Part shown: in pieces, positions 4,218 through 63,484 of the stretch
Numbering within the stretch: position 1 is the first letter of the stretch
How the letters are laid out: each line of letters starts with the position of its first letter
Assembly (NCBI GenBank): GCA_943349945.1
Contig: CALQZS010000001.1
Span: 51,339-115,338 of the forward strand
Direction: 5' to 3'
DNA: 64,000 bases
From: Candidatus Nomurabacteria bacterium
GTDB taxonomy: Bacteria > Patescibacteriota > Minisyncoccia > Phycocordibacterales > SBAW01
Notes under the pieces: model-generated
What the model saw: only the letters and a program-made list of their open reading frames with translations
The model's database searches: none
What the model was told of the DNA's origin: nothing
Position numbers and translations under genes: made by a program

Positions 4218-5147
4218 ATGATTTATGACCTTGCAATAATTGGTGGCGGCCCTGCGGGTGTTGCTGCTGGAGTGTATGCTGCCCGCAAACGATTAAAAAC
4301 AGTTTTTCTTGCAGAGAGTATTGGTGGCCAAAGCACCGACTCCGTCGAGATACAAAACTGGATAGGCACCGAAAAAATATCCGGGCTTGATTTGGCAAAG
4401 TCGCTTGAGACACACTTGCACGCATACGCAAGCGATGTGGTGGATATACACATAGGTGCGCGTGCTACTGCGGTCACCAAAACCTCTACGGGTTTTTCTA
4501 TCCAAACAAATAAAGAGACGTTTGAGGCACGCGCCGTACTGGTAGCCACCGGTGGTTCGCGGCGCAAACTCGACATCCCCGGTGCGGCAGCGTTTGAGCA
4601 TAAAGGGGTTACCTATTGCGCATCTTGCGACGGCCCTATGTTTACAGGCCAAGACACTATTGTTGTTGGCGGCGGCAACGCCGGGTTTGAGACCGCCGCA
4701 CAACTGCTTGCGTATGCAAAATCAGTAACCCTGGTGCACCGTAGCCCCGACTTTGCCCGCGCCGACGCTGCAACCGTAAACGCCGTACTCGCCCACCCCA
4801 ACATGCGCGCCTTGGCCAACACAGAACCCGTGGAGGTAAAAGGTACTACGTTTGTAAACGCCCTTACAGTCAAAAATAAAGAAACTGGCGAAGTGTCGGA
4901 CATTCCTGTTGCTGGTATTTTTGTAGAAATTGGTATGACCGCCAACACCGACCTGGTCAAAGGCCTGGTAGACCTAGACGACTGGGGTCGCGTCAAAGTG
5001 GATGGCAAAAGCCAACGCGCATCACTACCGGGCATTTGGTCTGCGGGCGACTGCTCGGACGGTCTGTATCATCAAAACAACATCGCCGCAGGCGACGCGG
5101 TGAAAGCACTGGAAGATATCTACTTCTACCTTCGCGCAAACAAATAA
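4218..5147 (+). CDS. trxB: thioredoxin-disulfide reductase-like FAD/NAD(P) oxidoreductase
   Basis: Has the FAD-binding motif IIGGGPAGVAAGVYAARK, a redox-active CASC, and the second Rossmann motif VVGGGNAG. Confidence 0.8.
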   Translation: MIYDLAIIGGGPAGVAAGVYAARKRLKTVFLAESIGGQSTDSVEIQNWIGTEKISGLDLAKSLETHLHAYASDVVDIHIGARATAVTKTSTGFSIQTNKETFEARAVLVATGGSRRKLDIPGAAAFEHKGVTYCASCDGPMFTGQDTIVVGGGNAGFETAAQLLAYAKSVTLVHRSPDFARADAATVNAVLAHPNMRALANTEPVEVKGTTFVNALTVKNKETGEVSDIPVAGIFVEIGMTANTDLVKGLVDLDDWGRVKVDGKSQRASLPGIWSAGDCSDGLYHQNNIAAGDAVKALEDIYFYLRANK

Positions 5148-7015: not shown

Positions 7016-7171
7016 CTGCACGAAATTGTTTAATTTTCATGGTCACAAGTCAAATTTTGTCGTCACAAAATTCGCTCGCGACCCCGGCTCGCGATTTTGC
7101 AAGTGCAAAACATCGCTACGCCCGTCCCAAAAGCAGAAAACCTGCCGCAGGGCAGGTATTTCTGTCTTTTG

Positions 7172-7243
7172 TGACCCCACCGGGAATCGAACCCGGATTA
7201 ACGGCTTGAAAAGCCGGCGTCCTAACCGTTAGACGATGGGGCC
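7172..7243 (-). tRNA. tRNA-Glu (anticodon TTC)
   Basis: Cloverleaf GGCCCCA...CTTTTCAAG...GGTTCGATTCC...TGGGGTCA. CCA is not encoded. Confidence 0.85.
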
Positions 7244-7327
7244 GTTTACCCACCCACTTGGGCGGATACAATGCAAAATATAGCTTAAAACTCAAAAAAA
7301 TGCTATTTTGCGGAAGACTAGACTCAA

Positions 7328-7414
7328 GGAGAGGTGGCTGAGTGGTCTAAGGCACCGGTTTCGAAAACCGGCATGGGGGAAACCTCATCGAGGGTTCAAA
7401 TCCCTCCCTCTCCG
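7328..7414 (+). tRNA. tRNA-Ser (anticodon CGA)
   Basis: GGAGAGG acceptor stem, anticodon loop TTCGAAA, long variable arm, and T-loop GGTTCAAATCC. Confidence 0.9.
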
Positions 7415-7420
7415 CAAGTA

Positions 7421-7450
7421 AAAAATACGCGCCATTTGGCGCCATTTTTT
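7421..7450. terminator. intrinsic terminator after tRNA-Ser (A-run, GCGCC/GGCGC stem, T-run)
   Basis: Sequence aaaaaatacgcgccatttggcgccatttttt. Confidence 0.7.
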
Positions 7451-7583
7451 AGCGAAGAGGAACAAAGTGCGGGGCACTTTGTGTGAGGTATTTGAAAGCC
7501 GGAACGGGCCCCGGACCAGCAGGTACGGGGGTGAGGCAGGGTCGTGCGGCCAAAGTTGCGACGGGAACTTTGGGACGCCTGAC

Positions 7584-7604
7584 CAAATCCCTCCCTCTCC
7601 GCAA
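7584..7604. repeat. exact 21-nt direct repeat of the tRNA-Ser(CGA) 3' end (caaatccctccctctccgcaa)
   Basis: Identical to 7397-7417. It lies 187 nt downstream of the tRNA, at the left edge of a low-GC island. Confidence 0.85.
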
Positions 7605-7637
7605 AAGTTCGAAATTATAATATGGTATAACTCCTTT

Positions 7638-8237
7638 GTGGACATTGCTGCACAAATTTTAGCATTTTTTGGAAACAACACGCCCCTGGTATCTTTTTTT
7701 GGAGCAATTATAGGTGGCGAAGAAACTCTCGTATTGCTTGTTATTTTTGCAGCGCGAGACACGCTTAACCTTTGGCACATTGTAATCTTTTTTTATGCCG
7801 GAGTAATGGTGTCAGATGCTTTGTGGTACCTGGTCGGCAGATCCAGAGTATTTAATTGGCTCATCACGCACAGACTTACGTTTAATGCATATACCTATTG
7901 GGGAAAGATGCTATACAAAACCATGGGCAACAACACACTGGAAGTATTGTTCATGACTAAATTTTTATATGGTTTTAGAATCCCTACCATCATGTATTTT
8001 GCTCAAGAACGTTTGTCGTTTCGAGCTTTTATACAATACTCACTACTGACCAACTTGATTTGGATGACCATAATCACCGTCTTTGCATGGTTTGCAGGAA
8101 AAGGTATCAAATTTGCTATGCATTTTTCACACAACATTCTCCTGGACGTCTTCCTCATTGGTGTGGTTATGGTTCTTTTTGCTCTTGTTGCTAGAATTGC
8201 CTCAAAGTACACAAAATCATGGCTCCAAAAGAAATAA
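7638..8237 (+). CDS. DedA/VTT-family-like integral membrane protein (start uncertain)
   Basis: Multi-TM protein with a GGEETLVLL segment resembling the DedA PGE..L.LAG motif. It sits in a ~40% GC region. The GTG at 7638 is the first plausible start after the tRNA repeat; the upstream part of ORF 7467..8237 overlaps the repeat and is rejected. Confidence 0.5.
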   Translation: MDIAAQILAFFGNNTPLVSFFGAIIGGEETLVLLVIFAARDTLNLWHIVIFFYAGVMVSDALWYLVGRSRVFNWLITHRLTFNAYTYWGKMLYKTMGNNTLEVLFMTKFLYGFRIPTIMYFAQERLSFRAFIQYSLLTNLIWMTIITVFAWFAGKGIKFAMHFSHNILLDVFLIGVVMVLFALVARIASKYTKSWLQKK

Positions 8238-9661
8238 CTTCCCTCATACTCGAAGCCGAGTCAACAAGAGTTTTTTTCTTGATACACGGGTATACAGGCA
8301 GCTCGGACGACTTTCATAACTTGCCAGGTATTTTGCATAAAAAATTTAACGCAAACGTTAAAGTTATTTTGTTGCCTGGGCACGGCACCAAAGTTGAAGA
8401 CCTCGACCACATCACCTACGCAGATTTTATGTACGTGCTGCGCAACGAACTAGAAAAAGAACTGTCGAAGGGTATGGAGGTTATCTTAGGCGGGGTAAGT
8501 ATGGGTGGGCTGTTTGCGCTCTTACTTGCAGCCGAATACCCCGTACAAGGAGTTTTTAACGTTTCCTCTCCCTATGTTATGAAGTTTCCCTTTAACCTAC
8601 CTGGCTTAAAATACATTCTGAAGTACAAAAAATACTGGAAAAAGGCAACACAATCGTCGACACATTCAAAAACATCTGGGTCGTTTAGTTACACGCATAT
8701 GCACTCTAATGGATTTTATATAGCCGTGCAGGCAAAAAAAGAACTGCGGCGCGTTCTAAAAAATGTATCCAGCCCTCTACTCACCATATTTTCCACCAAA
8801 GATGACATTGGGCACATACGGTCGGTACGCAGCATACAAGAGGGCGCAAACTCCAGCATCAAAAGAGAGGGCATCTTCCACATAGAGCCGCATAATGTAT
8901 TTTATTCTAATGAAGACCACAAGGTAAATGATGAGATAGTACGATTTATTGAATATATAGATTTGCCAGAAAAGCACTTAGGCAGCCGCGAAAAAATTGC
9001 AGCCATTATCCCCGCCTATAACGAAGGGTCAAGAATAGAAGCAGTTTTGCGCGCAGTGACCGCTGTTTCTTTGATAGACGAGGTGATTGTTGTAGATGAC
9101 GGCTCTACAGACAATACACGCGAAGTAGTAACAAAATTTCCCAACGTCACCTACATACAAAACGAAGTAAATATTGGCAAAGCAGGCTCGCTAGACAAAG
9201 GAGTGACCCACACAGACGCATCTATATTGTTTTTCTGTGATGCCGATCTTAGAGGCATCACGCCTACAATGATTGAGCAGATACTCGAACCCGTCCTATT
9301 TCGCACATACGCGATGTTTATCGGCTTGCGCAATAATCCCATGCAAAAATCTGTGCACTTGTTTGCAATAAATTCTGGCGAACGCGCCCTAACACGAGAA
9401 GTATGGGAGAAACTACCCCACTATTTTAAACACCGATACCGAGTCGAAGCTGGCTTAAATTATATGGTACGAAAATATTTTGGAGGATTTGGCTACCGAA
9501 CCTTCGATTACTCGCAGCCCTTAAAAGAGAGCAAGTACGGACTAGTGAGAGGCACTTACTTGCGCTGGAGCATGAATATGGACGTCTTGCTAGCCTATAC
9601 TCGAGAAATTATCGAGCGGCTTTTTCGACCGCAAAGACTCTATACTTGCCATGACAAATAA
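8219..9661 (+). CDS. fusion protein: N-terminal alpha/beta-hydrolase (esterase) domain and C-terminal family-2 glycosyltransferase domain
   Basis: GVSMGG nucleophile elbow in the N-terminal half. The C-terminal half has IIPAYNEGSRIE...VVDDGSTDNT...CDADL. Low GC. Confidence 0.75.
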   Translation: MAPKEITSLILEAESTRVFFLIHGYTGSSDDFHNLPGILHKKFNANVKVILLPGHGTKVEDLDHITYADFMYVLRNELEKELSKGMEVILGGVSMGGLFALLLAAEYPVQGVFNVSSPYVMKFPFNLPGLKYILKYKKYWKKATQSSTHSKTSGSFSYTHMHSNGFYIAVQAKKELRRVLKNVSSPLLTIFSTKDDIGHIRSVRSIQEGANSSIKREGIFHIEPHNVFYSNEDHKVNDEIVRFIEYIDLPEKHLGSREKIAAIIPAYNEGSRIEAVLRAVTAVSLIDEVIVVDDGSTDNTREVVTKFPNVTYIQNEVNIGKAGSLDKGVTHTDASILFFCDADLRGITPTMIEQILEPVLFRTYAMFIGLRNNPMQKSVHLFAINSGERALTREVWEKLPHYFKHRYRVEAGLNYMVRKYFGGFGYRTFDYSQPLKESKYGLVRGTYLRWSMNMDVLLAYTREIIERLFRPQRLYTCHDK

Positions 9662-9688
9662 GCCTCTTTTTGCTACAGTAGGGCCAAC

Positions 9689-9764
9689 GCGCGGTTAGCT
9701 CAGTTGGTAGAGCATCCCCTTGACGTGGGGAGGGTCACAGGTTCGAGTCCTGTATCGCGCACCA
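9689..9764 (+). tRNA. tRNA-Val (anticodon GAC), CCA encoded
   Basis: GCGCGGTTAGCTCAGTTGGTAGAGC...TTGACGT...GGTTCGAGTCC...GCGCACCA. Confidence 0.9.
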
Positions 9765-10603
9765 TGGATTTCAAAGACAGAGTCATCCTCTACCACGGCA
9801 ACTGCCTCGACGGCTTTGGCGCGGCGTATGCTGCCTGGAAAAAATTTGGCGACTCCGCAAGTTATATTGCAGTCTTCCATGGCGACGCACCACCTACAGG
9901 ACTTGAGGGTAAGGAGGTATACATCGCCGACTTTAGCTATCCAAAAGAGCAGCTACTCGAGCTGGAGAGGCAGGCAAAGCGCCTGGTCGTGCTCGACCAT
10001 CACGAAGGGGCAAAGGGGTATGTCGAGCTTGTTCGCGAGCACATCTTCGACAACGACCGCTCGGGCAGCGGCATCGCGTGGGAGTATTTTAACCCCAACA
10101 TTCCCCTGCCTCGCCTACTTGCCTACATACAAGACGGCGACTTGTGGCGACACAGCCTGCCGCAGTGGCGCGAAGTTGGGGCATATCTAAGCACCGCGGC
10201 ATTTACCTTCGAAACCTTTGACACCCTCGCCATAACATTTGCAGACGATGTGGAGTTTGAAAAAATAATCCAAAAAGGCGCAGCCTTTGCCGAGTATCGC
10301 GACTACCTGTGCCAAAAGTTTATCGAGAACGCAGAAGAGGTGCAGCTGGACGAGTTTAGTGTGCTTGCCGTCAACACGCCGCGGCTTTTTAATTCTCAAG
10401 TGGGCAACCTGTTAGCACAGAAGCATCCACCCTTTGCAATTGTGTGGTATCCAAGTGATAAAGATTGGCATTTTTCGCTCCGCGGCACAGGCGAAGTAGA
10501 CTTGGCTGCTGTGGCACAGCGCCGCGGCGGCAACGGCCATCACAATGCGGCAAGCTTCCGTATCCCCTTTGGACAACCATTCCCGTTTACTCGCAAAGGT
10601 TAG
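9764..10603 (+). CDS. nrnA: DHH/DHHA1 phosphoesterase (NrnA-like nanoRNase/pAp phosphatase)
   Basis: Motifs VLDHH and GGNGHHNAASF. The ATG overlaps the tRNA-Val CCA by 1 nt. Confidence 0.8.
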   Translation: MDFKDRVILYHGNCLDGFGAAYAAWKKFGDSASYIAVFHGDAPPTGLEGKEVYIADFSYPKEQLLELERQAKRLVVLDHHEGAKGYVELVREHIFDNDRSGSGIAWEYFNPNIPLPRLLAYIQDGDLWRHSLPQWREVGAYLSTAAFTFETFDTLAITFADDVEFEKIIQKGAAFAEYRDYLCQKFIENAEEVQLDEFSVLAVNTPRLFNSQVGNLLAQKHPPFAIVWYPSDKDWHFSLRGTGEVDLAAVAQRRGGNGHHNAASFRIPFGQPFPFTRKG

Positions 10604-10605
10604 TT

Positions 10606-11850
10606 ATGCGTGTACTAGCAATAGAAACGTCGTGCGATGAGACAGGTATCGCGATAGTAGAAGGTATAAAAACTAGCGCACCAGGAGGTTTTACCTTTAC
10701 CCTTTTGGGTGCTGCGGCGCTCAACTCGCAAGCAGCACTGCACGCACACTACGGCGGCGTCTTTCCCAGCCTTGCCAAGCGCGAGCACGAAAAAAACTTG
10801 CCGGTTATTTTAGCGCAGGCACTAATGCATGCACAGCCGAAATTCGCACGAGAAAATAGTCTGGCCCGAAGCTCGTCCGAAGACGAGCAAGGGAGAACCG
10901 AGGACTTTTTCGAGGCGAATTTTGGCGAAGCAATAAACGCTTTACACATAGACGCCATAGCCGTGACCCAAGGCCCTGGGCTTGAACCCGCACTGTGGAC
11001 AGGTATCACCTTTGCACAAAACCTCGCAAAAGAAACAGGACTGCCGTTGTTGCTAGCCAACCATATGGAAGGGCATCTTATCTCATCTCTTGCACAACCC
11101 GAACATTCTAGCATTCTGCAGAATGCTAGAATGTTTACACTAGAAAATGTGCAGCTACCAGTGCTTGCACTGCTCATCTCGGGCGGACACAGCGAATTTG
11201 TGTTGATGAAAAACTGGTTCGAATACTCCGTAGTGGGAGAGACACAAGACGACGCCGTAGGCGAAGCCTTCGACAAAGTTGCACGCATGCTCGGACTCCC
11301 CTACCCAGGCGGCCCCGAGATATCCAAAATTGCTGATGTCGCTAGAAAAGCGAAGATGCAGAGTTTGGAGGGGCTCCACAGCGCGTCTGCATCTTCGCTT
11401 GTTCTCCCACGCCCTATGCTCCACAGCAAAAATTTAGACCTTTCTTTTTCTGGACTCAAGACCGCTGTACTGTACGCGCTGCGCGACTTGGGCGGCATAC
11501 AAAAACTATCGCACGAGCAGATAGCAGAATTTGCCCGAGAGTTTGAAGATGCCGTAGCCGACGTGCTGGTAGCCAAAACTCGGCGCGCATTGGAAGAAAC
11601 TGGCGCCCAAACATTTGTAATCGGCGGCGGTGTTGCAGCAAACACCTACCTACGCGAGAGGCTTAGCGCGTGCGTGCAAAACGAGTTCCCCCACGTGGCC
11701 CTGCGACTCCCCGACCTCTCTATAACAGGCGACAACGGCATCATGGTGGCACAGGCTGCGCTTGCCCGCGCACTTTCTGGCTTGGACGACACCCCAAAGG
11801 GCGAGGTACGCGCCTACAGCAATAGGTTCTCGATTTTAGCGCCAAAATAG
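10606..11850 (+). CDS. tsaD: tRNA N6-adenosine threonylcarbamoyltransferase TsaD
   Basis: Contains LAIETSCDETGIAIV and VIGGGVAANTYLRERL. Start is taken at MRVLAIE within ORF 10465..11850. Confidence 0.9.
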   Translation: MRVLAIETSCDETGIAIVEGIKTSAPGGFTFTLLGAAALNSQAALHAHYGGVFPSLAKREHEKNLPVILAQALMHAQPKFARENSLARSSSEDEQGRTEDFFEANFGEAINALHIDAIAVTQGPGLEPALWTGITFAQNLAKETGLPLLLANHMEGHLISSLAQPEHSSILQNARMFTLENVQLPVLALLISGGHSEFVLMKNWFEYSVVGETQDDAVGEAFDKVARMLGLPYPGGPEISKIADVARKAKMQSLEGLHSASASSLVLPRPMLHSKNLDLSFSGLKTAVLYALRDLGGIQKLSHEQIAEFAREFEDAVADVLVAKTRRALEETGAQTFVIGGGVAANTYLRERLSACVQNEFPHVALRLPDLSITGDNGIMVAQAALARALSGLDDTPKGEVRAYSNRFSILAPK

Positions 11851-11863
11851 CCTAGAATAGCGT

Positions 11864-13951
11864 ATGCCCGAGAAATTTCTCAAACCTTATAACGCATCTG
11901 CTGCCGAGGCAGATATATACAAAAAATGGGAGGAAAGTGGCTACTTTAACCCCGACAATTTGCCGGGCGAGCGCAGCGAGCCCTTTACCATTATCATGCC
12001 GCCGCCCAACGCCAACGGCAGCCTCCACGCGGGCCACGCATTGTTTGTAACCATCCAAGACATCATGATGCGCTTTGAGCGCATGCGTAGCAAAAAAGCG
12101 CTCTGGCTCCCCGGGGCAGACCACGCCGGGTTTGAAACCCAAGTAGTGTACGAACGCCAACTCGAAAAGAGCGGCCGTTCGCGTTTTGAGATGCAGCCGG
12201 AAGATCTTTACAAAGAGATCATGGACTTTACCCTTGCCAACAAATCCTTTATGGAAGGGCAGCTGCGCCAATTGGGCGCGAGCTGCGACTGGTCGCGCGA
12301 AATGTTTACGCTCGACGAGCGAGTCGTCAAAACGGTCTACAGTACCTTCCAAAAACTGCACGACGACGGACTGCTCTATCGCGGCTCGCGCATCGTCAAC
12401 TGGTGCCCCAAACATCAAACATCTCTCTCAAACCTCGAGACAGAGCGCGAGACTCGCACCGACAACTTTTACTATTTGAAATACGGCCCCTTTACCATAG
12501 CGACCGCCCGTCCCGAGACAAAGTTTGGCGACAAGTACGTGGTGATGCACCCTGAAGACCCTCGCTACGCACAGTACAAGGCCGGCGACACCTTTGAGCT
12601 GGAGTGGATAAACGGCCCCATCACCGCAACGGTTGTTAAAGACGAGGCAATAGACATGGAGTTGGGTACTGGCGTCATGACCATCACCCCATGGCACGAT
12701 CAGGCCGACTTTGACATTGCACAGCGCCACAACCTGCCTTTTGATCAAGTGATAGATTGGCGCGGCAAGCTGCTCCCTGTGGCGGGCGAATTTGCAGGGA
12801 TGAATATAAAAGATGCGCGCGCAAAGATTGTCGAAAAACTCCAAGAAAAAGGCCTGGTTGAGAAAATTGACGAAAAATATACTCACGAAGTACCGGTGTG
12901 CTACAAATGCAGCCGCGAGATAGAGCCTCAAGTGCGCCCACAGTGGTTTGTGAAGATGCAGCCGCTCGCAGCGCGCGCGATAACTGCCATAAAAAACGGA
13001 GAGGTTAAGGTTTTGACCGAACAGCACGAAAAAGTTCTGCTCCATTGGCTCGAAAATATTCAAGACTGGAATATCTCACGCCAAATTATCTGGGGCATCC
13101 CTATACCTGCATGGAGTAAAGGCGACGAGTGGAAAATTGGCGCAGACTCGCCCGGCGACGGATGGGTACGCGACCCCGACACTTTCGACACTTGGTTTTC
13201 ATCCGGTCAGTGGCCCTTCGCAACGCTTCAGTTCCCCGACGGTACTGATTTCAAAACCTACTACCCCACAACCGTCATGGAGACGGGGGCAGACATCCTA
13301 TTTTTTTGGGTGGCGCGCATGATTATGCTCGGACTCTACCGCACCGGCGAAGTACCGTTTAAGTACGTCTACCTCCACGGCATGGTACGCGACGCAAAAG
13401 GACAGAAGATGAGTAAATCTAAGGGTAATGTTATCTCCCCTATCGACGTTTCAAGCCAATACGGTACCGACGCACTGCGTATGGGGCTGGTAGTGGGCAA
13501 CACGCCTGGTACCGATATGAATCTTGACCCAAAGAAAATTGAGGCGTACAAAAAATTTGCAAACAAACTTTGGAATATCACTCGTTTTGTACTAGAAAAC
13601 GGCCTCGGCGACCACACACAAGCAGGTGGTGCCCTAGTAGAGGAATTTGATGCACTCGCCCAAGACGTAACTCACGAGATGGAGCTTTTTCACTTTCATC
13701 TTGCGGCAGAAAAGCTCTACCACTACGTCTGGGACCGCTTTGCGAGCGAGATATTGGAAGACAGCAAAACACTACTCAAAGGCGAAGACAGCGCACAAAA
13801 AGCCGCACGCCAAAGCGAACTTGCCTACATTTTGCGCGGCACACTCAAACTCCTGCACCCATTTATGCCGTTTATAACCGAAGAAATCTGGGGATCATTG
13901 CCCCACAATACACAGACCCTGCTGATGGTCGAGTCCTGGCCTACAAAATAG
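11864..13951 (+). CDS. valS: valyl-tRNA synthetase (short form without C-terminal coiled coil)
   Basis: HIGH-type motif PPPNANGSLHAGHA and KMSKS. The ValRS-like editing and core domains are present. Confidence 0.8.
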   Translation: MPEKFLKPYNASAAEADIYKKWEESGYFNPDNLPGERSEPFTIIMPPPNANGSLHAGHALFVTIQDIMMRFERMRSKKALWLPGADHAGFETQVVYERQLEKSGRSRFEMQPEDLYKEIMDFTLANKSFMEGQLRQLGASCDWSREMFTLDERVVKTVYSTFQKLHDDGLLYRGSRIVNWCPKHQTSLSNLETERETRTDNFYYLKYGPFTIATARPETKFGDKYVVMHPEDPRYAQYKAGDTFELEWINGPITATVVKDEAIDMELGTGVMTITPWHDQADFDIAQRHNLPFDQVIDWRGKLLPVAGEFAGMNIKDARAKIVEKLQEKGLVEKIDEKYTHEVPVCYKCSREIEPQVRPQWFVKMQPLAARAITAIKNGEVKVLTEQHEKVLLHWLENIQDWNISRQIIWGIPIPAWSKGDEWKIGADSPGDGWVRDPDTFDTWFSSGQWPFATLQFPDGTDFKTYYPTTVMETGADILFFWVARMIMLGLYRTGEVPFKYVYLHGMVRDAKGQKMSKSKGNVISPIDVSSQYGTDALRMGLVVGNTPGTDMNLDPKKIEAYKKFANKLWNITRFVLENGLGDHTQAGGALVEEFDALAQDVTHEMELFHFHLAAEKLYHYVWDRFASEILEDSKTLLKGEDSAQKAARQSELAYILRGTLKLLHPFMPFITEEIWGSLPHNTQTLLMVESWPTK

Positions 13952-15172: not shown

Positions 15173-15499
15173 TTAGTGTTTTTCTTCTTTAATCCTTTTT
15201 GCGAGTTTGTCCATTTGTTTTGGAAATTCTGTTTCAAGGTCAATACCAAGCGCATCTGCTACTCGAATAGTTGACCACAAACAGTCACAAACTTCATGCC
15301 GGAGCTTTTCGTCAAGATCTTCAGCGGGAGCGCGCACACCCGACTTCATCAGAACTAACCGCGCAAGCGTGCCTAAATCTTCCATAAACCCTTGCATGTA
15401 ATGCTGCAGCTCCCATTTAGAGTGACCTTGTTCTTTATTAAGCTGATCGTATAAGAAACTAATTTCCCGAGCTTTTTTTGCAAGTTCTTGAAATTCCAT
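15173..15499 (-). CDS. MazG-like nucleotide pyrophosphohydrolase domain protein
   Basis: MazG-type helical fold motifs (EDLGTLARLVL, CDCLWSTIRVADALGIDLE). The start is 5 nt downstream of the tRNA-Phe CCA. Confidence 0.7.
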   Translation of the reverse strand: MEFQELAKKAREISFLYDQLNKEQGHSKWELQHYMQGFMEDLGTLARLVLMKSGVRAPAEDLDEKLRHEVCDCLWSTIRVADALGIDLETEFPKQMDKLAKRIKEEKH

Positions 15500-15504
15500 A
15501 CTTT

Positions 15505-15580
15505 TGGTGCTCGGGGCCGGGCTCGAACCGGCGACCCCTTCCTCTTCAGGGAAATGCTCTACCAACTGAGCTACCCGAGC
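15505..15580 (-). tRNA. tRNA-Phe (anticodon GAA), CCA encoded
   Basis: GCTCGGGTAGCTCAGTTGGTAGAGC...CTGAAGA...GGTTCGAGCCC...CCCGAGCACCA. Confidence 0.9.
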
Positions 15581-16032: not shown

Positions 16033-16104
16033 GCCCCTGTAGTTCAATGGATAGAACAGCCCCGTCCTAAGGGGTTAATGTGGGTCCGATTCCTGCCGGG
16101 GGCA
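16033..16104 (+). tRNA. tRNA-Arg (anticodon CCT)
   Basis: GCCCCTGTAGTTCAATGGATAGAAC...GTCCTAA...TCCGATTCC...CGGGGGCA. It is followed by a nested hairpin at 16102-16151. Confidence 0.8.
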
Positions 16105-16179: not shown

Positions 16180-16422
16180 CTACGCCTCTACGCCCAACTT
16201 TGCTGCCAATTTTTCGCGATCAAAGCCGATCATAATATCGCCGTCGATAACAATCACCGGCACACCAAGCTGTCCTGTCATTTGAATCATCTCTTCACGC
16301 TTCGCTGCATCTACCGAGACGTCAAAGTTGGTAAACGGTATATTTTTTTCGGCAAAAAAATCTTTTGCCATTTTGCAAAAGTGGCAAGTCGGCGTGCTGT
16401 AAATAGTGACGGTTTTTTCCAT
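16180..16422 (-). CDS. glutaredoxin/NrdH-like redoxin
   Basis: CHFC active site (TCHFCKMAK) and GVPVIVIDG. Confidence 0.8.
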   Translation of the reverse strand: MEKTVTIYSTPTCHFCKMAKDFFAEKNIPFTNFDVSVDAAKREEMIQMTGQLGVPVIVIDGDIMIGFDREKLAAKLGVEA

Positions 16423-16463
16423 AAAGATGCGGTTATTGGTTAGGCATCAATTTTATCATATTT

Positions 16464-16537
16464 TGGTGCGAGTGGGGAGAATCGAACTCCCGCCCAGTGC
16501 TTGGGAAGCACTTATTCTACCACTAAACTACACTCGC
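16464..16537 (-). tRNA. tRNA-Gly (anticodon CCC), CCA encoded
   Basis: GCGAGTGTAGTTTAGTGGTAGAA...TTCCCAA...AGTTCGATTCTCC...CACTCGCACCA. Confidence 0.9.
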
Positions 16538-20714: not shown

Positions 20715-23093
20715 TTACTGCGCAATAGGAGCTGTAGTGCGCTCTTGCGGTGCGTCGGTTACAGGAGGTTGCGCATTTTCAAACGGAGGCTTCCCTGCGC
20801 GCAGGTTGCTCAAGATGAGTTTAACCTCTTGGTTGTCTGGATTTGTTTTTTCTAGATCCACAAACTGCTGCAGTGCCTCTTGTGTGCGTCCCTGCGCTGC
20901 GTACGACAACCCCAAAAAGTATTTAGCGTTTGCAAACTCCGGCTGTATCTTAACCGCCTGCTCGAAGACAGGTAGTGCGTTAGCTGTATCGTTTGCACTA
21001 TAGTGCAACAGTCCTAGCTCAAACCAAATTGCCGGCACACCAGGCGCACTGCGCACGGCAGCCTGCGCCGCCCGAATAGCGTTAGGTATGTCTTTGTTAG
21101 CAACATTCAGTTGCACCAAAAAGAGTATGGCGTCTGTGTAGTCTGCCTTGAGTGTGAGCGAGCGCGACAAGTGCGTCTCTATTGCCGCCAAGCCACCACC
21201 TTGCGTTGCCGCAAGCCGCGCGAGTGCCAGCGGTATTTCAGGACTGGTTGGGTGTAGCAGCGCCGCCTGTTGATACATTTTTTCTGCACTCTCTGTAGCA
21301 CCCGAGACGCCCACAGACGCCAAGAGGCTGTATATTCTACCTAGCGCCACATAGCCACGGTAGTCATTTGGAGCAGCAGCAAGTACCTGTAGTCCCAGGG
21401 GAACAACCTTTTCTACCTCGCTTCTAAACTGTTCTTGCTCTGCAGCTGAGGGCGACTCTATTGCAGCAATTCTTTGCAAGTTTGCACCATGCGCCGCTGT
21501 TTGCAGACGTGCCAAATCTTGTATTGGTTTTATTTTTTGTGCTTTTGCTGCAAGCATAAGTGCTTTTTCTGTGTCCCCTTGCGACAAAGCTTCTGCTCCT
21601 TTGTTGACATACCCTTGCGCCACAGCTTGCCGAGCAACCACGGCAGCCAACCACAGAGCCGCTACTATAATTGCGAGTGAGACGACAGCGAGCAGTAATT
21701 GTCCAAACCGGGACAACCGAGTCTTCTCTGCAACAGCATGGCCTTTCATACAAAAACCAAATGTTGCACCAAAAAGTGTAAAGGCAAGCAGGATACTATT
21801 TTGACTTGGCACGTACAACAACATGCCGACCCAAAGCAATATACTCGAAACTCCTAAAGCCAACACCAACACCTTCTCGCTCACCGCAGGCGACCGTAGT
21901 GCCCGCAGCAGTCCAAATACCACCAAAAGGAGCGGCACGAACCAGGCCAGCACACCTAAAATGCCGACGCTCGCAAGCGCTGTAGCCAAGGTGCTAAACC
22001 CGACAGCAAAATCAAGGCTCCAAAACGGCGACTGATTTACTTCGAGCGGCTTGTGCAGCAGCCAACTCTGTCCAAATGTCTGTGGTCCAGTACCCACCAA
22101 AAAACGCTCGACAGAAGTGCCGTGGGATAGGCGGGTGATGTCGAGAGTCGAACTGAATGCAGGCCGCACTTCCAAAGAGGATACTGGCAAAACACTGGTC
22201 AAGCTGGTGTTCACACTTGCTCCATACAACAAAAGTAGGGTGCTTATACCCGCACCCAAAAGCGGCACCCATGGCACATCAGCAAGCGTCCACTCGGCAG
22301 CATCGGTTGCCTGTTTGGAGAAAAAAGACCATAGCGCCAGCACCACACACACCCCAAGCACCATACCCCACACCAGCGGGAACTGTATGACCGCAAGTAG
22401 CAGCACGAGCACCAGTGCCAAGGCCCCGAGCAACAAGCGACGCACGGTGCTGAGACTTACAAACTCAAGCACGAACAAAACCAAAACCAGCAGTATGCCT
22501 GCCAATAATCCTAGGTCATTCCACTTGCCGATGAGGTTAATTGACCGGTCCGCAAAAACAGCGAAAGGCACCACACTTGTGCCGAAGAACATAACTACAT
22601 ATTGGAATAGCACTGGTGCAAGTATGCTGCCTGCAACGGTATACATAAGCGTCCGTGCCGCGCGTGCCGTAGCAAACAACCCGAACGCAAGCAAAAATGC
22701 CAGCGTCGACAAAGTAGTGAACAGCACTGTGTCTGTGTCGAACATGTACCCGACCAAACCAATGCTCCTGTCGACAGAGAAGTACCAAGAAACTAGATAC
22801 ACGAGCGGGAGCGCCACAACCAACAGAGCCGCACGAGACCCACGACTGTGCAAAAATTCACGCACCCCGCCGGCAAGCAAAAAGAACGTCAAAGAAACAG
22901 CCAAAAAAACTGCAAAAATAGCAACTTTGCCCAATTGCAGTGGAAACCAAACACTAGGAATAATAAAAAGTATCGAAAACACGGTACCGGACAGATACGT
23001 ATAGCGCGCCCAAGACATAAGACTTTGTGGTTTCATATATGGATTAGTATACTGCATCTCCCCTGTTGTGCGGAGTGACAAAATCCACAGCAA
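20715..23093 (-). CDS. O-antigen ligase/polymerase-like membrane protein with C-terminal TPR repeats
   Basis: Multi-TM N-terminal domain and a C-terminal block of TPR-like repeats (ALGRIYSLL, YFLGLSYAAQG). Confidence 0.55.
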   Translation of the reverse strand: MLWILSLRTTGEMQYTNPYMKPQSLMSWARYTYLSGTVFSILFIIPSVWFPLQLGKVAIFAVFLAVSLTFFLLAGGVREFLHSRGSRAALLVVALPLVYLVSWYFSVDRSIGLVGYMFDTDTVLFTTLSTLAFLLAFGLFATARAARTLMYTVAGSILAPVLFQYVVMFFGTSVVPFAVFADRSINLIGKWNDLGLLAGILLVLVLFVLEFVSLSTVRRLLLGALALVLVLLLAVIQFPLVWGMVLGVCVVLALWSFFSKQATDAAEWTLADVPWVPLLGAGISTLLLLYGASVNTSLTSVLPVSSLEVRPAFSSTLDITRLSHGTSVERFLVGTGPQTFGQSWLLHKPLEVNQSPFWSLDFAVGFSTLATALASVGILGVLAWFVPLLLVVFGLLRALRSPAVSEKVLVLALGVSSILLWVGMLLYVPSQNSILLAFTLFGATFGFCMKGHAVAEKTRLSRFGQLLLAVVSLAIIVAALWLAAVVARQAVAQGYVNKGAEALSQGDTEKALMLAAKAQKIKPIQDLARLQTAAHGANLQRIAAIESPSAAEQEQFRSEVEKVVPLGLQVLAAAPNDYRGYVALGRIYSLLASVGVSGATESAEKMYQQAALLHPTSPEIPLALARLAATQGGGLAAIETHLSRSLTLKADYTDAILFLVQLNVANKDIPNAIRAAQAAVRSAPGVPAIWFELGLLHYSANDTANALPVFEQAVKIQPEFANAKYFLGLSYAAQGRTQEALQQFVDLEKTNPDNQEVKLILSNLRAGKPPFENAQPPVTDAPQERTTAPIAQ

Positions 23094-23096
23094 ACG

Positions 23097-23490
23097 CCCC
23101 GCTTTTGGCGGGGCGTCTACAATATCTAGCGCGCGCGTCTGTAAGCCGAGTTCTGTCTCCGCCGGTTGGCGGAAGCAACAATTTATCTAGCTCGGGCGTT
23201 ACCGCCCGAGTCAAGCGGCACTCCCACACAAGGTGGGCACGGCCTTGCACTTGGACAAGGATTTAGCTCCGACACCCCGAAGGGGTCGGAGTCCCGGTTT
23301 ATTACGTCGGGACCGTTTCACTCCCACTGAAGGGACTCGTCTCTGTTCGCACCTCTGGTGCCCGCTAGCAGCACCCGATGGGGATTACCCACTGCCTGTC
23401 TGCACTCCACATTTCTGTAGAGGCAAGTGCTCGGACTTTCCTCTCTGACTATTCGTCAGAGCTGTTACTCGACGCGCTCTCTATATTGTA
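23097..23490 (-). ncRNA. rnpB: RNase P RNA (bacterial type)
   Basis: On the minus strand: P4 region GAGGAAAGTCCGAGCAC, GGGAGTGAAACGG, ACAGAACTCGGCTTACAG, and P1 pairing between the 23471-23490 and 23120-23140 regions. A hairpin follows at 23095-23116. Ends are approximate. Confidence 0.75.
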
Positions 23491-26893: not shown

Positions 26894-27007
26894 AAACTTT
26901 CTGCTGAAAGTTTTATGCTCCGGCGTTCGAATCTCTCACGCAAAGTACGCAGGTACTTTGCTCGCCTCTCGCAAAATCAAAACGCCCGTTTTGGGCGTTG
27001 GATTTTG

Positions 27008-27092
27008 CGGAGGCGGAGAGATTCGAACTCTCGGTGGGTTGCCCCACACAGACGTTCCAGGTCTGCGCACTAGACCACTATGCGACGCCTCC
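27008..27092 (-). tRNA. tRNA-Ser (anticodon GGA)
   Basis: GGAGGCGTCGCATAGTGGTCTAGTGCG, anticodon loop CTGGAAC, long variable arm, GAGTTCGAATCTC. CCA is not encoded. Confidence 0.85.
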
Positions 27093-33533: not shown

Positions 33534-35441
33534 ATGGAACCAAATAAAAAGCCTGTACAAGGCCGTCCGTTTGCTGCAAAAAACCCTACCAACAAACCCG
33601 GTGGCACTTTTGGCGCACAAAGAGGTGGCCGCGGCAAACGCGGCGACAGTCGCTCGTTTCGACGCAGCGGTGGCCCCAAGCCTCACCAAGTGCACCCGCC
33701 TCGCGAAATCGCGGAGCAAGGCATGCCCAACACAAACGGTGCCGAAGAAAAACCAATACCACCACTTGAGGCCGGGAACATCCGCATCATCCCGCTAGGC
33801 GGCGTCGAAGAAATCGGCCGCAACATGACCGCAATTGAATATGGCGACGACATTATCGCCATAGACTGTGGTTTCCAATTCCGCGAAGACGACACCCCTG
33901 GCATCGACTACATCCTGCCTAACACCAAATATCTAGAAGACCGTCGCGACAAAATCCGTGGACTCTTTATAACCCACGGACACCTCGACCATATCGGCGG
34001 CATCCCCTACGTTATCGACCGTATCGGCTACCCGCCGATATTTACCCGCCGCCTCTCTGCGGTCATGATCAAAAAACGCCAAGAGGAATTCCCAAACCTA
34101 AAACCTCTGGATATCCACGAAGTAGAAAAGGAGGACACTATTCGCGCAGGCAATATGCGGGTTAAGTTTTTCGCCGTGTCGCACACCATCCCCGACGCTA
34201 TGGGTATCATTATAGAAACTCCGCACGGACTCGTGGTATTTACCGGTGACTTGCGCCTCGACCACATCGACGGCATTCCTACCGAAAAAGAGGAGCAGGA
34301 ATTTGCCTACTTTAAAGACAAAAAGGTGCTCTTTTTGGCAGCAGACTCGACCAACGCCGACAAGCCAGGGTTTTCTCTGCCGGAGCGCATTGTGCAAAAA
34401 AATCTCGACGACATAATCACCAATACCAAGACGCGCTTAATAATCGGCACCTTCTCGAGCCAGCTGGAGCGTATTATGCGCATGCTCGAGTGTGCTGAAC
34501 GTACCGGACGCAAAGTCCTGGTTGAAGGCCGCTCTATGAAGGTAAACATAGAAATAGTGAAGCAGCTTGGGATGATCAAGGTAGACGAAAAAATGTTTAT
34601 CGGACCCGAGCAGCTCGAGCACTTGCCCGACCACAAGGTGATGGTCTTGGCCACCGGCGCACAAGGCGACGAATTTGCCGCACTGATGCGCGTTGCACAA
34701 AAAACCCACAAGTACGTCAAGATTAAACCCGGCGACACCGTGGTACTCTCCTCGTCTGTGGTGCCAGGCAACGAACGCGCCGTACAAAAACTCAAAGACA
34801 ACCTCTCTCGCCAAGGCGCGCGCATTATCGACAGACAAATCATGGACGTGCACGCCTCGGGCCACGCCAACCGCGACGAAACACTTTGGATACACTCCAA
34901 AATAAATCCTCGCTTCTTTATGCCGCTGCACGGCTATCACTACATGTTGCGTGTACACGCGGACATTGCCAAAGCATGCGGCCGTAGAGAAGACGAGATA
35001 ATCGTCCCCGACAACAGCTGCATTATCGAAATCCAAGACGAGGGACAAAAAATAGTACGCCGCAAAGAAATGGCTCCTGCAGGACTCCGCCTGGTAGACG
35101 GCTTTTCTATCGGCGACATCCAAGAGGTGGTTATACGCGACCGCACTGTGCTTGCCCAAGAAGGCATGTTTGTCATCATCGCAACGGTAAACCCAAAAAC
35201 CGGCCGCTTGCGCAAATCTCCAGACATCATCTCGCGCGGCTTTGTATACTTGCGCGAGTCGCAAGAACTGTTGCAACAAACACGCATCATCATCAAAAAA
35301 ACAATCGAAGACACTACCCAGGGTATGCAGCCGGTTAACTTTGACTATGTCAAAAACAACGTCACAGACGCGGTCGCACGTTTTCTATTCGAGAAGACAA
35401 ACAAGCGCCCTATCGTCATCCCTGTCGTACTTGGCGTCTAG
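33534..35441 (+). CDS. rnj: ribonuclease J (metallo-beta-lactamase/beta-CASP) with basic N-terminal extension
   Basis: ITHGHLDHIGG and beta-CASP motifs, preceded by ~70 aa that are rich in R, G and K. Confidence 0.9.
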   Translation: MEPNKKPVQGRPFAAKNPTNKPGGTFGAQRGGRGKRGDSRSFRRSGGPKPHQVHPPREIAEQGMPNTNGAEEKPIPPLEAGNIRIIPLGGVEEIGRNMTAIEYGDDIIAIDCGFQFREDDTPGIDYILPNTKYLEDRRDKIRGLFITHGHLDHIGGIPYVIDRIGYPPIFTRRLSAVMIKKRQEEFPNLKPLDIHEVEKEDTIRAGNMRVKFFAVSHTIPDAMGIIIETPHGLVVFTGDLRLDHIDGIPTEKEEQEFAYFKDKKVLFLAADSTNADKPGFSLPERIVQKNLDDIITNTKTRLIIGTFSSQLERIMRMLECAERTGRKVLVEGRSMKVNIEIVKQLGMIKVDEKMFIGPEQLEHLPDHKVMVLATGAQGDEFAALMRVAQKTHKYVKIKPGDTVVLSSSVVPGNERAVQKLKDNLSRQGARIIDRQIMDVHASGHANRDETLWIHSKINPRFFMPLHGYHYMLRVHADIAKACGRREDEIIVPDNSCIIEIQDEGQKIVRRKEMAPAGLRLVDGFSIGDIQEVVIRDRTVLAQEGMFVIIATVNPKTGRLRKSPDIISRGFVYLRESQELLQQTRIIIKKTIEDTTQGMQPVNFDYVKNNVTDAVARFLFEKTNKRPIVIPVVLGV

Positions 35442-63242: not shown

Positions 63243-63413
63243 GTCACGAATCACTAACTATTTTACTTCGGCACCTCGTAAAATACTAAGTGTTCTCGAC
63301 CCCGACTCAAAAATTCATTCCCCGAACGAATTTTTTCCGTCCTTCGAATCCTCAACTTCAAGCAGATTAGCGCACAGAAAAACCGCCCTCTCGGGCGGCC
63401 ATCTGTGCGCTTG

Positions 63414-63484
63414 CTGCCAGACTAGGATTCGAACCTAGATAAACAGATTCAGAGTCTGTTGTCCTACCATTAGACGATCTGGCA
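63414..63484 (-). tRNA. tRNA-Gln (anticodon CTG)
   Basis: U1:A72 acceptor (TGCCAGA / TCTGGCA), anticodon loop CTCTGAA, GGTTCGAATCC. CCA is not encoded. Confidence 0.85.

Follow-up and report, generated by a model that had tools for sequence, protein, structure and literature searches.

Start codons abutting tRNA genes suggest that tRNA excision may generate leaderless mRNAs in Paceibacteria

How might a gene be expressed if its start codon begins on the last base of a tRNA gene? The question is raised by a locus in 64,000 nucleotides of DNA from a Candidatus Nomurabacteria bacterium (contig CALQZS010000001.1, positions 51,339 to 115,338). We refer to this whole stretch as the window. According to the initial annotation, the ATG of a gene labelled nrnA shares its A with the encoded CCA of a tRNA-Val gene, leaving no space for a promoter or ribosome-binding site. 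The mRNA was proposed to result, without a leader, from processing of the tRNA 3' end. The features involved are listed below.

9651..9679, + strand: promoter-like site of the tRNA-Val unit, found by consensus scan (ATGACA, 17 nt, TACAGT, with an upstream TG)
9689..9764, + strand: tRNA-Val(GAC), encoded CCA included (ARAGORN)
9689..9761, + strand: body of tRNA-Val(GAC), to discriminator A73 at 9761 (ARAGORN, Rfam, and covariation)
9762..9766, + strand: junction CCATG, in which C74, C75, and A76 are encoded and one base, A9764, overlaps the ATG (sequence)
9764..10603, + strand: gene for a DHH/DHHA1-family phosphoesterase of 279 aa, NrnB-like/COG2404 (weak Pfam DHH and DHHA1 matches; homologs)

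The overlap is as described. ARAGORN detects the tRNA and Rfam family RF00005 matches positions 9689..9761 with 67 bits, where the gathering score is 29. Read directly, the junction is GCGC-A-C-C-A-T-G. The first of these A residues (9761) is the discriminator and the second (9764) is both the last base of the CCA and the first of the ATG (9764-9766). Three assemblies of this population, made independently and obtained from NCBI, ENA, and JGI, all have the same junction, so an assembly artefact is ruled out. Samples with this population include those behind JGI 3300002138, ENA ERZ27280275, and GCA_943353785.1. The sequence also bears out that no promoter or ribosome-binding site could fit between tRNA-Val and the ATG, and the junction contains no terminator. 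The tRNA itself is a bona fide gene, with an anticodon, a high covariance score, and base pairs kept by compensatory change. Among 21 tRNA-Val genes that abut an ORF, compensatory changes are seen at 14 of 21 cloverleaf pairs, and no pair is disrupted. The covarying pairs include the 3' strand of the acceptor stem, which provides the bases directly 5' of the abutting ATG. Folding of the precursor gave z = 0.3 and a minimum-free-energy structure without the cloverleaf.

The name nrnA could not be substantiated. Pfam matches to DHH (19.6 bits) and DHHA1 (18.4 bits) are both under their gathering scores. A search of NCBIfam found no family at E<=0.01, and a PDB sequence search returned only 6mtz_A (DHH-like protein, E=0.034) and no NrnA chain. 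We rejected the assignment for these reasons; many homologs have precomputed PF01368/PF02272 matches and the names given by JGI are NrnB/COG2404-like. In the family alignment, D78-H79-H80, G256, and G258 are invariant, while G255 and H259 are nearly so. The window protein keeps every invariant residue, DHH 78-80 included, and by this measure is a member of the DHH/DHHA1 phosphoesterase superfamily.

The initial annotation had also taken the N-terminus to be genuine. This part of the claim stands, although the family is not demonstrably NrnA. Around 3,000 homologs in Patescibacteria match the protein in length (~275-285 aa, compared with 279 aa in the window) and at the N-terminus, where MDFKDRVILYHGNCLDG aligns with the family pattern M-x(0-4)-K-[DN]-IVVLYH..C.DG. 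In three assemblies, gene callers return a protein of 279 aa. Initiation at GTG 9989, the first in-frame alternative on the downstream side, would cost the protein invariant Y10-K27 and D56. Upstream, TTG 9704 and GTG 9725 are both inside tRNA-Val, through which the frame stays open to give an ORF of 299 aa. However, in related loci L002, L004, L005, and L014, an in-frame stop within the tRNA leaves the abutting ATG as the sole start available. These stops, together with the family N-terminus, led us to reject other start codons. Note that in database homologs P0043 and P0086 the N-terminus is extended by tRNA sequence that has been translated as protein. Calling ORFs through tRNAs can therefore create false extensions. 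If the explanation preferred below is right, starts that abut tRNAs might be used to anchor start-codon calls in CPR genomes with high confidence.

Transcription signals were found elsewhere than at the junction. The consensus promoter scan detected no promoter inside tRNA-Val. The sole promoter-like site is upstream of the tRNA; 9 nt separate its -10 box from the start of the tRNA. In most related loci, a TAnnnT box (mostly TGnTATAGT) ends 8-12 nt before tRNA-Val, whether or not an ORF abuts. The situation at the DHH start codon depends on the arrangement. At abutting loci, TAnnnT ending 3-14 nt before the ATG occurs in 0 of 12 cases. At unfused loci, it ends 5-9 nt before the ATG in 35 of 67 (mode 6-8 nt; background 6.7%). 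This difference, in the presence of a -10 box at the DHH ATG, is significant (0/12 vs 35/67; Fisher p = 8e-4), with counts that are not phylogenetically independent. A Shine-Dalgarno (SD) sequence is absent before the ATG in 56 of the 67 unfused loci. For the SpoU gene, a -10 box ending 8-9 nt before the ATG is present in all seven loci that have a gap between tRNA and gene; in five the box is TGcTATAAT/TATAGT. Similar signals occur throughout the window and in the same gene row as the DHH gene.

10606..11850, + strand: tsaD, second cistron (Pfam TsaD; NCBIfam TIGR03723, 307 bits)
11853..13951, + strand: valS (Pfam tRNA-synt_1 and Anticodon_1; upstream sequence)

At valS, a -10-like box (TAGAAT, 11853-11858) ends 5 nt before ATG 11864, which marks the gene as a likely promoter-type leaderless start. 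Across the window, TAnnnT is found 5-10 nt upstream of 19/56 first ATGs of long ORFs vs 15/334 internal ATGs. SD-like motifs are not enriched in the same comparison (4/56 vs 27/334). An SD candidate within tRNA-Val, GGGGAGGG at 9726-9733 (anticodon stem/variable region), was rejected; it is ~30 nt upstream of the ATG and is not conserved in L074, L075, and L076. Taken together, -10 boxes ~7 nt before starts, with no SD enrichment, indicate that this lineage uses leaderless initiation. Tsurumaki et al. (2022; PMC9297842) report that around half of Parcubacteria lack the anti-SD motif. Among open-access full texts, we found no report of leaderless mRNAs in Parcubacteria/Patescibacteria.

Comparison with related genomes, as the initial annotation had suggested, separates what is conserved at the junction from what is not. 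An ATG-led ORF begins 1-6 nt past the tRNA-Val discriminator in about half of 80 related Paceibacteria loci, and <=12 nt after tRNA-Val in 34 of 65. For all 118 tRNAs of the window and related loci, an ATG-opened ORF of >=70 aa starts 1-6 nt past the discriminator in 34 instances, compared with 2.7% of random positions, the counts being uncorrected for shared ancestry and not phylogenetically independent. The distribution of tRNA-to-ORF distances has its peak at 1-6 nt. Genes found after tRNA-Val encode DHH, SpoU methylase, DUF475/TerC, Exo_endo_phos, and a 393-aa membrane protein. Overall, abutting pairs involve >9 downstream gene families and four tRNA species (tRNA-Val, tRNA-Phe, tRNA-Ser, and tRNA-Glu). 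These counts point to a recurrent, clade-wide arrangement, irrespective of the downstream gene, and not to a single locus. With tsaD and valS adjoining, one might suspect that tRNA-Val and the DHH gene are linked by a specific function. We do not favour this idea, since other lineages have tRNA-Val next to at least five unrelated genes.

The DHH ATG abuts tRNA-Val(GAC) in nine related loci, 1-5 nt past the discriminator; the gap is 4 nt in L076 and 12 nt in L075. On the DHH tree, abutting loci are spread over at least 4-5 separate clades, with identities as low as ~43%. The CCATG junction recurs in L003, L024, L042, L052, L065, and L077, and other relatives have spacers of 1-5 nt. Across tRNA-Val loci the spacer is C in eight cases, CC in eight, and CA in two, with the remainder 3-5 nt. 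Hence, abutment recurs but the shared A varies (ACATG, ACAATG, ACAAATG, and ACCCATG are all found). The conserved feature is abutment, and the CCA/ATG overlap is only one of the forms that the junction takes. ATG serves as the abutting start in 41 cases and TTG in one, as expected for leaderless initiation. The window contains a second tRNA that abuts an ORF, as follows.

15505..15580, - strand: tRNA-Phe(GAA), CCA encoded (ARAGORN and Rfam)
15173..15499, - strand: gene for a MazG-like NTP pyrophosphohydrolase of 108 aa (ORF and upstream sequence)

The 3' flank of this tRNA is ACCA-aaagt-ATG, so that the MazG-like ATG is 5 nt past the CCA. Homologs with full coverage are mostly 108 aa (range 105-109), and the abutment is kept in metagenome loci L081 (CCA+gttgt+ATG) and L083/L084 (A+CACT+ATG).

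The overlap places a constraint on how the tRNA 3' end could be made. Cleavage 3' of the CCA would give an mRNA beginning UG..., so that the window's start codon would be lost. The cut must therefore be 5' of A76, with the tRNA subsequently completed by CCA-adding enzyme. Such an enzyme must exist, since 5 of 8 window tRNA genes have no encoded CCA. In the window and related loci, C74 is encoded in 111/118 tRNAs and the complete CCA in 30/118. For DHH-abutting loci, CCA is encoded in 2 of 12 only, namely the window and L003. The encoded CCA at tRNA-Val is thus not conserved across relatives and does not qualify as class I CCA encoding, in which exonucleases trim the tRNA back to its encoded CCA. 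Note that tRNAs with an encoded CCA usually end after A76, which counts against processing in the variant found in the window. A further objection is that Bacillus-type RNase Z is inhibited by an encoded CCA.

Our preferred explanation is that the DHH gene belongs to the transcription unit of tRNA-Val, from which tRNA excision yields a leaderless mRNA. We consider this probable. It is the most economical reading because the junction has no promoter or ribosome-binding site, the sole promoter-like site precedes the tRNA, the family start coincides with the ATG, and promoters of leaderless type are present where the gene is unfused. We infer the following steps. The promoter just upstream of tRNA-Val would drive a joint tRNA-Val/DHH transcript, from which RNase P would take off the few-nucleotide 5' leader. 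An endonuclease would then cut the 3' end of the tRNA after A73, C74, or C75, and CCA-adding enzyme would complete the tRNA. The DHH mRNA so freed would have a 5' monophosphate, begin 0-2 nt before the AUG, and have no SD. Its translation would proceed by the leaderless pathway, of which the lineage appears to make wide use. For leaders of 1-5 nt, we assume efficient translation by analogy with other bacteria. The proposal of a leaderless mRNA made by tRNA 3' processing therefore gains comparative support, but with a cut 5' of A76 and not after the CCA. Two further features of the window are pertinent.

23126-23480: RNase P RNA
33534-35441: RNase J gene

An mRNA with a 5' monophosphate is a preferred substrate of RNase J. 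Since RNase J is encoded in the window, the DHH message may be short-lived. Genes for RNase Z and CCA-adding enzyme, and the 16S 3' end, are absent from the window.

Could the fusion transcript instead be translated uncut? This would require SD-independent internal initiation at the AUG, and tight spacing would simply reflect genome compaction. In line with this, intergenic gaps are short in general; for example, the tsaD ATG is 2 nt past the DHH stop codon (TAG 10601-10603). Furthermore, no start in the window shows SD enrichment, so some SD-independent internal initiation must exist. We nevertheless regard this explanation as unlikely. No translating ribosome would be present upstream for coupling or unwinding, and a stable acceptor stem, conserved by covariation and positioned right at the AUG, would fill the 30S mRNA channel. 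The tRNA also needs release for function in any case. Moreover, unfused copies of the same genes have promoters placed for 5'-terminal AUGs, which argues for initiation that depends on the 5' end and is not internal. That abutting start codons are almost exclusively ATG argues in the same direction.

A different route to the same leaderless mRNA is a promoter in the 3' part of the tRNA gene. This would generate a primary transcript from A9764, with no need for tRNA processing. The clade has many leaderless promoters, in which 6-8 nt lie between -10 box and ATG. In addition, TATCGC is found at 9753-9758 in the window, and TACACC at the matching site in L001 and L002. However, the essential T at the final -10 position is missing. 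The sequence here is a GC-rich acceptor/T stem (CACCGCGCAC in most loci), where compensatory changes follow tRNA pairing and not the -10 consensus. With no TAnnnT box in the abutting loci and a negative promoter scan, we rejected an internal promoter as the main explanation and consider it very improbable. We give even less credence to the idea that the start is mis-assigned (the true one being TTG 9704, GTG 9725, or a downstream codon), the gene not expressed from ATG 9764, or the ORF decaying. The 299-aa frame that is open through the tRNA, and the extended homologs, might be read in this way. The tRNA-internal stops in relatives, the fit of the ATG to the family N-terminus and length, the 279-aa calls in three assemblies, and the intact invariant residues, some of which a start at GTG 9989 would remove, all argue otherwise.

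Excision of the tRNA, with release of a leaderless mRNA, may have implications beyond the DHH gene. Because tRNA-Val precedes at least five unrelated genes, and tRNA-Phe, tRNA-Ser, and tRNA-Glu are found in similar positions, the tRNA gene can be viewed as a module that would supply a promoter and generate a 5' end. This would be a bacterial counterpart of mitochondrial tRNA punctuation. In a broader form, for which we judge the case evenly balanced, Paceibacteria (Parcubacteria, CPR) would run mitochondria-like punctuation, with tRNAs, especially tRNA-Val(GAC), as portable promoter-plus-processing modules. The cut might be after C74, and the nuclease that makes it might not be RNase Z. The resulting mRNAs of any gene that happens to follow, with a 5' monophosphate and a 5'-AUG, would, alongside promoter-derived leaderless mRNAs, provide for translation start in a lineage that has for the most part lost the SD/anti-SD interaction. 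If our preferred explanation is right, this would be a conserved bacterial case of tRNA excision making translatable leaderless mRNAs, otherwise regarded as a hallmark of animal mitochondria. It would also mean that bacteria can couple the start of translation mechanistically to the processing of tRNA, and would bear on translation start in Parcubacteria without an anti-SD motif. We found no report of tRNA-punctuated leaderless mRNAs in bacteria among open-access full texts.

The closest parallel is the tRNA punctuation of animal mitochondrial transcripts, reportedly described by Ojala, Montoya, and Attardi in 1981. There, RNase P and a 3' endonuclease excise the tRNA from a longer transcript, and the freed mRNA, whose AUG is the 5' end or lies a few nucleotides inside it, is translated with no leader or SD; the same would hold here. 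Animal mitochondria also have 1-base overlaps between a tRNA 3' end and a gene, which are mended on the tRNA side by nucleotide addition, as we propose here. Unlike animal mitochondria, this bacterium has many separate promoters and would use single promoter-tRNA-mRNA modules, not a genome-length polycistron. Nor did we see mRNA 3' ends defined by tRNAs, or incomplete stop codons. In E. coli, leaderless mRNAs are said to be generated by MazF (Vesper et al., in 2011). MazF, like the endonuclease proposed here, cuts post-transcriptionally just 5' of the AUG. However, the MazF cut is stress-induced and directed by the sequence ACA, whereas the proposed cut would be constitutive, defined by tRNA structure, and would release a functional tRNA too.

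Co-transcripts of tRNA and mRNA are not new. The E. coli thrU-tyrU-glyT-thrT-tufB transcript is one. Other instances (PMC4247193) are TK0306 of Thermococcus, which has a tRNA-Lys within its 5' UTR, and precursors joining a tRNA to a snoRNA, which RNase Z cuts. In these cases, as in our proposal, the tRNA promoter drives the downstream gene and tRNA processing parts the RNAs. The difference is that these downstream RNAs have a normal leader, of tens to >100 nt, with their own ribosome-binding signals or no need of any. Here, the spacer is 1-6 nt and so the processing site itself would define a leaderless 5' end. A bacterial cut 5' of A76 is known from Propionibacterium acnes which, without RNase Z, cuts inside the encoded CCA, between the two Cs (PMC3848588), with CCA repair after. 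This C74/C75 cut fits the near-universal C74, and variable C75 and A76, of the tRNAs described above. Unlike the cut proposed here, it is not tied to release of a translatable downstream mRNA. Finally, promoter-derived leaderless mRNAs are found in Actinobacteria and Deinococcus, for example in Mycobacterium (PMC4633059) and Streptomyces (PMC4681348). They share the 5'-terminal AUG start, the absence of an SD, and a strong preference for ATG, and their promoter configuration is also present in this window and among relatives of the genes discussed here. Unlike in those bacteria, the 5' end of an abutting gene's mRNA would most probably not stem from transcription initiation, but result from RNA processing and have a 5' monophosphate. 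Since tRNA punctuation in mitochondria and leaderless mRNAs in bacteria are both already known, the arrangement described here would be a variant of both.

The window's source group is Patescibacteria (CPR), Paceibacteria/Parcubacteria, and the nearest public loci are from MAGs labelled Candidatus Nomurabacteria or Adlerbacteria. An initial annotation held that a DHH gene start codon shares one A with the encoded CCA of tRNA-Val. ARAGORN, Rfam and direct reading of the sequence agree. The tRNA ends GCGC-A-CCA, and the last A (9764) doubles as the A of the ATG. The relevant features are as follows.

9651-9679, forward strand: promoter-like site (ATGACA, 17 nt, TG-n-TACAGT), with the -10 box ending 9 nt before tRNA-Val
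9689..9764, forward strand: tRNA-Val(GAC), ARAGORN; Rfam tRNA model 67 bits over 9689..9761
9764..10603, forward strand: DHH ORF, 279 aa, opened by ATG 9764-9766

The junction is identical across three assemblies made independently from one population. Start codon assignment is supported by approximately 3,000 patescibacterial homologs, nearly all 275-285 aa long. Family members begin with M-x(0-4)-K-[DN]-IVVLYH..C.DG, to which MDFKDRVILYHGNCLDG in the window conforms. The next in-frame start is GTG 9989, and its use would delete invariant residues; upstream, TTG 9704 and GTG 9725 are both within tRNA-Val. Furthermore, in four related loci (L002, L004, L005, and L014) the tRNA contains an in-frame stop. 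Hence, no start other than the abutting ATG is possible in these relatives, and mis-assignment is excluded. Given this evidence, and the matching assemblies, we conclude that the junction is real and that the ATG encodes the true N-terminus, as first proposed. Note that some ORFs are open in frame across tRNA genes (9704-10603, forward, giving 299 aa; 15173-15565, reverse, giving 130 aa). In some database homologs, there is also an N-terminal extension of translated tRNA (P0043, ...ARLAQLVERPLDVRKVRRFDP...; P0086, GVRIPHRAP), an annotation error due to tRNA-ORF abutment. The protein has weak Pfam matches to DHH and DHHA1, and is a divergent DHH/DHHA1 phosphoesterase that sources name NrnB-like/COG2404. 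The 'nrnA' label was dropped, since NCBIfam and PDB sequence searches did not place the protein in NrnA.

Scanning one genome per species identified 80 loci (L001-L080) coding for relatives of the DHH protein. In most, tRNA-Val(GAC) is upstream of the DHH gene on the same strand. The tRNA directly abuts the DHH ATG, with 1-5 nt past the discriminator, in the loci below.

Junctions between tRNA-Val and the DHH ATG
GCGCA-CC-ATG: window, L003
GCGCA-C-ATG: L002, L004, L005, L014
GCGCA-CA-ATG: L001
GCGCA-CAA-ATG: L012
GCGCA-CCC-ATG: L074
GCGCA-CCCAA-ATG: L046

The gap is 4 nt in L076 and 12 nt in L075. In a neighbour-joining tree of DHH proteins, abutting loci are spread over at least 4-5 separate clades, and identities go as low as ~43%. 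Because the junction sequence varies, the shared A loses the prominence it was originally given; the conserved feature is abutment, not CCA overlap.

We next consider all 118 tRNAs from the window and the 80 loci, and ask which are followed by an ATG-opened ORF of at least 70 aa. For 41 of the 118 tRNAs, the 3' end is 12 nt or less from the start of such an ORF. Distances from the discriminator peak sharply at 1-6 nt (34/118 tRNAs, compared with 2.7% of random positions; binomial p = 1e-25, uncorrected for shared phylogeny) before a flat, sparse tail. Abutting start codons are ATG (41 cases) or TTG (one case). For tRNA-Val, 34 of 65 occurrences abut an ORF start (12 nt or less), and the genes downstream differ.

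Genes 3' of tRNA-Val
DHH gene
SpoU-family RNA methyltransferase (MRPKR...IYGKH, ~255-276 aa)
DUF475/TerC membrane protein
Exo_endo_phos protein
393-aa membrane protein

CCATG, the overlap found in the window, also occurs with the SpoU gene (L024, L042, L052, L065, and L077). Other tRNAs abut ORFs as well: tRNA-Ser(CGA) does so in 5/23 occurrences, and one tRNA-Glu is next to a gene for a low-molecular-weight phosphatase. A dedicated functional link between tRNA-Val and DHH is unlikely, since the downstream genes are too varied. We conclude that abutment is a clade-wide architecture independent of the gene downstream, with the 3' end of a tRNA probably standing in for a leaderless promoter. Synteny of the tRNA-Glu(TTC)/tRNA-Ser(CGA)/tRNA-Val(GAC) cluster (window 7171-9764; also L001, L002, L008, and L012) extends to distant Paceibacteria; orientation and intervening genes vary.

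A second abutting pair is present in the window.

15505..15580, reverse strand: tRNA-Phe, followed by CCA-aaagt-ATG of a MazG-like gene (108 aa)

Full-coverage homologs of the MazG-like protein are mostly 108 aa (range 105-109), and the abutment is kept in metagenome loci L081 and L083/L084. In one relative (L082:1117-1500), an insertion of ~385 nt carrying a small ORF (ending ...KREVQLKGWSREKKEKLIKGNWK) separates tRNA-Phe from the MazG-like gene. This breaks the abutment, and the MazG ATG is now 6 nt past the stop of the inserted ORF. Downstream of tRNA-Gly(CCC), within 16422-16464 (reverse), is an extended -10-like TGaTAAAAT. Some 27 nt further on is the ATG of ORF 16180-16422 (reverse; glutaredoxin-like, 80 aa). 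Here, the leader is ~20 nt without a Shine-Dalgarno (SD) motif and the start is neither leaderless nor abutting.

How do the same genes start when unfused? SD-like motifs are missing from 56 of 67 such DHH loci; what lies just 5' of the start is a -10 box (TACACT, TAGACT, GATAAT or TATAAT). The gap from the end of a TAnnnT hexamer to the ATG is 5-9 nt in 35/67 (mode 6-8 nt; background 6.7% of ATG triplets), compared with 0/12 abutting DHH loci (Fisher p = 8e-4). With this spacing, transcription would start at, or next to, the A of the ATG. This is a signature of promoter-derived leaderless mRNAs. Likewise, SpoU is either fused to tRNA-Val or has a -10 box ending 8-9 nt before the ATG (L019, L043, L045, L057, L069, L070, and L071; TGcTATAAT or TATAGT in 5/7). 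For DUF475, TACAGT ends 6 nt before the ATG in L053. The comparison of fused and unfused DHH and SpoU genes points to leaderless translation. Promoter-type DHH starts (in loci such as L029, L031, L034, L050, and L065) have in common a longer conserved motif, TTTGTGCG(G/A)TA(C/A)ACT or ...GCGATAAT, suggesting that an extended promoter specific to the clade, or else an operator, is located 5' of the leaderless start.

Across the window, a -10 box is 5-10 nt upstream of 19/56 first ATGs of long ORFs, compared with 15/334 internal ATGs. Gene starts in the window show no enrichment of SD-like motifs (4/56 first versus 27/334 internal ATGs), which agrees with a published finding that about half of Parcubacteria have no detectable anti-SD motif (PMC9297842). 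The source genome thus appears, from its sequence, to rely largely on leaderless or very-short-leader mRNAs. Starts with a -10 box (TATACT, TATAAT, TAGACT) 5-10 nt upstream and no SD are at 4218, 11864, 13968, and 25375 (forward), and 15992 and 19013 (reverse). Further -10-box starts without SD are at 52398 (forward), and 26403, 38846, 52290, and 63163 (reverse).

Most related loci, both abutting and non-abutting, have a TAnnnT box (typically TGnTATAGT) that ends 8-12 nt 5' of tRNA-Val. The gene 5' of this promoter in the window (8219-9661, forward) encodes an alpha/beta-hydrolase domain (residues ~16-220) fused to a family-2 glycosyltransferase domain (~260-377). The bases directly 5' of the DHH ATG belong to the acceptor and T stems of the tRNA. 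In 21 tRNA-Val genes that abut an ORF, compensatory changes affect 14 of the 21 pairs of the cloverleaf and no pair is broken; covarying acceptor pairs include 2-72, 3-71, 6-68, and 7-67. Hence, the stretch before the ATG evolves under tRNA, rather than promoter or ribosome binding site, constraints. Typically, non-abutting tRNAs have terminator-like hairpins downstream, for which abutting tRNAs have no room. Together, the promoter box, tRNA-constrained junction and lack of terminator space strongly imply that tRNA and ORF are co-transcribed.

The 3' ends of the tRNA genes bear on processing.

With CCA: Val 9689-9764 (forward), Phe 15505-15580 (reverse), Gly 16464-16537 (reverse)
Without CCA: 7328-7415 and 16033-16104 (forward); 7171-7243, 27007-27092, and 63413-63484 (reverse)

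Since five of the eight window tRNA genes lack CCA, CCA repair must exist. The CCA-encoding genes are exactly those with a co-oriented ORF next, at 0, 5, and 41 nt, respectively. At least 4/5 CCA-less genes have GC-rich terminator-like hairpins downstream, and such genes typically run on as C-AAA(A/G). Across the 118 tRNAs, C74 is encoded in 111 but full CCA in only 30. This suggests that 3' maturation retains or recognises C74, and is compatible with a cut after this base. In P. acnes, which has no RNase Z, cleavage was mapped "between the Cs" of encoded CCA (PMC3848588).

We consider the following pathway probable. A promoter 5' of the tRNA would fire, generating pre-tRNA with a leader of a few nucleotides that RNase P trims. 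An endonuclease would cleave at the tRNA 3' end and CCA-adding enzyme would complete the tRNA. The released RNA would start 0-2 nt (window) or 0-5 nt (relatives) before the AUG, and undergo leaderless translation. The tsaD gene, starting 2 nt past the DHH stop, is the second cistron. For the CCATG variant of the window, cleavage would have to be 5' of A76, followed by CCA repair, because a cut after CCA leaves UGGAUU... with no start codon. Cleavage after C74 would give an exact 5'-AUG at the commonest junction, A-C-ATG, and a 1-nt leader in the window. Two relevant genes are present.

23126-23480, reverse strand: bacterial class A RNase P RNA (Rfam 106.3 bits, only just above the gathering threshold of 100 bits)
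33534-35441, forward strand: RNase J, with beta-CASP and RNase J C-terminal domains

The RNase P RNA gene partly overlaps, and sits at the 5' end of, a long open frame (20715-23186). RNase J has both 5'-3' exonuclease and endonuclease activity, stimulated by a 5' monophosphate. It would be a candidate processing enzyme and also a decay route, shortening the lifetime of 5'-monophosphate mRNA.

Alternatively, the uncut tRNA-mRNA fusion might be translated directly, as is possible in an SD-less genome. We disfavour this since a stable, conserved acceptor stem is up against the AUG, no upstream ribosome is available for coupling, and the tRNA needs release in any case. Moreover, the same genes elsewhere use a promoter-type 5'-terminal AUG. 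An internal promoter, within the tRNA gene, could also provide a leaderless mRNA; the -10 box is wholly absent from all abutting loci, so this too is disfavoured. The core of the initial annotation, a tRNA-mRNA fusion probably giving leaderless mRNA, has strong comparative evidence in its favour; its gene name and emphasis on CCA overlap should be revised.

Full-text searches of open-access literature retrieved no account of leaderless mRNAs in Parcubacteria, nor any of tRNA-punctuated leaderless mRNAs in bacteria. In function, tRNA-ORF abutment would be akin to mitochondrial tRNA punctuation together with leaderless translation as known from bacteria. Conversely, classical bacterial tRNA-mRNA operons, and the Thermococcus tRNA-Lys/TK0306 co-transcript, have a normal leader after the tRNA, unlike the window junction. 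Leaderless mRNAs made by MazF differ again; there, the cut is set by sequence, whereas in the window arrangement it would be set by tRNA structure.
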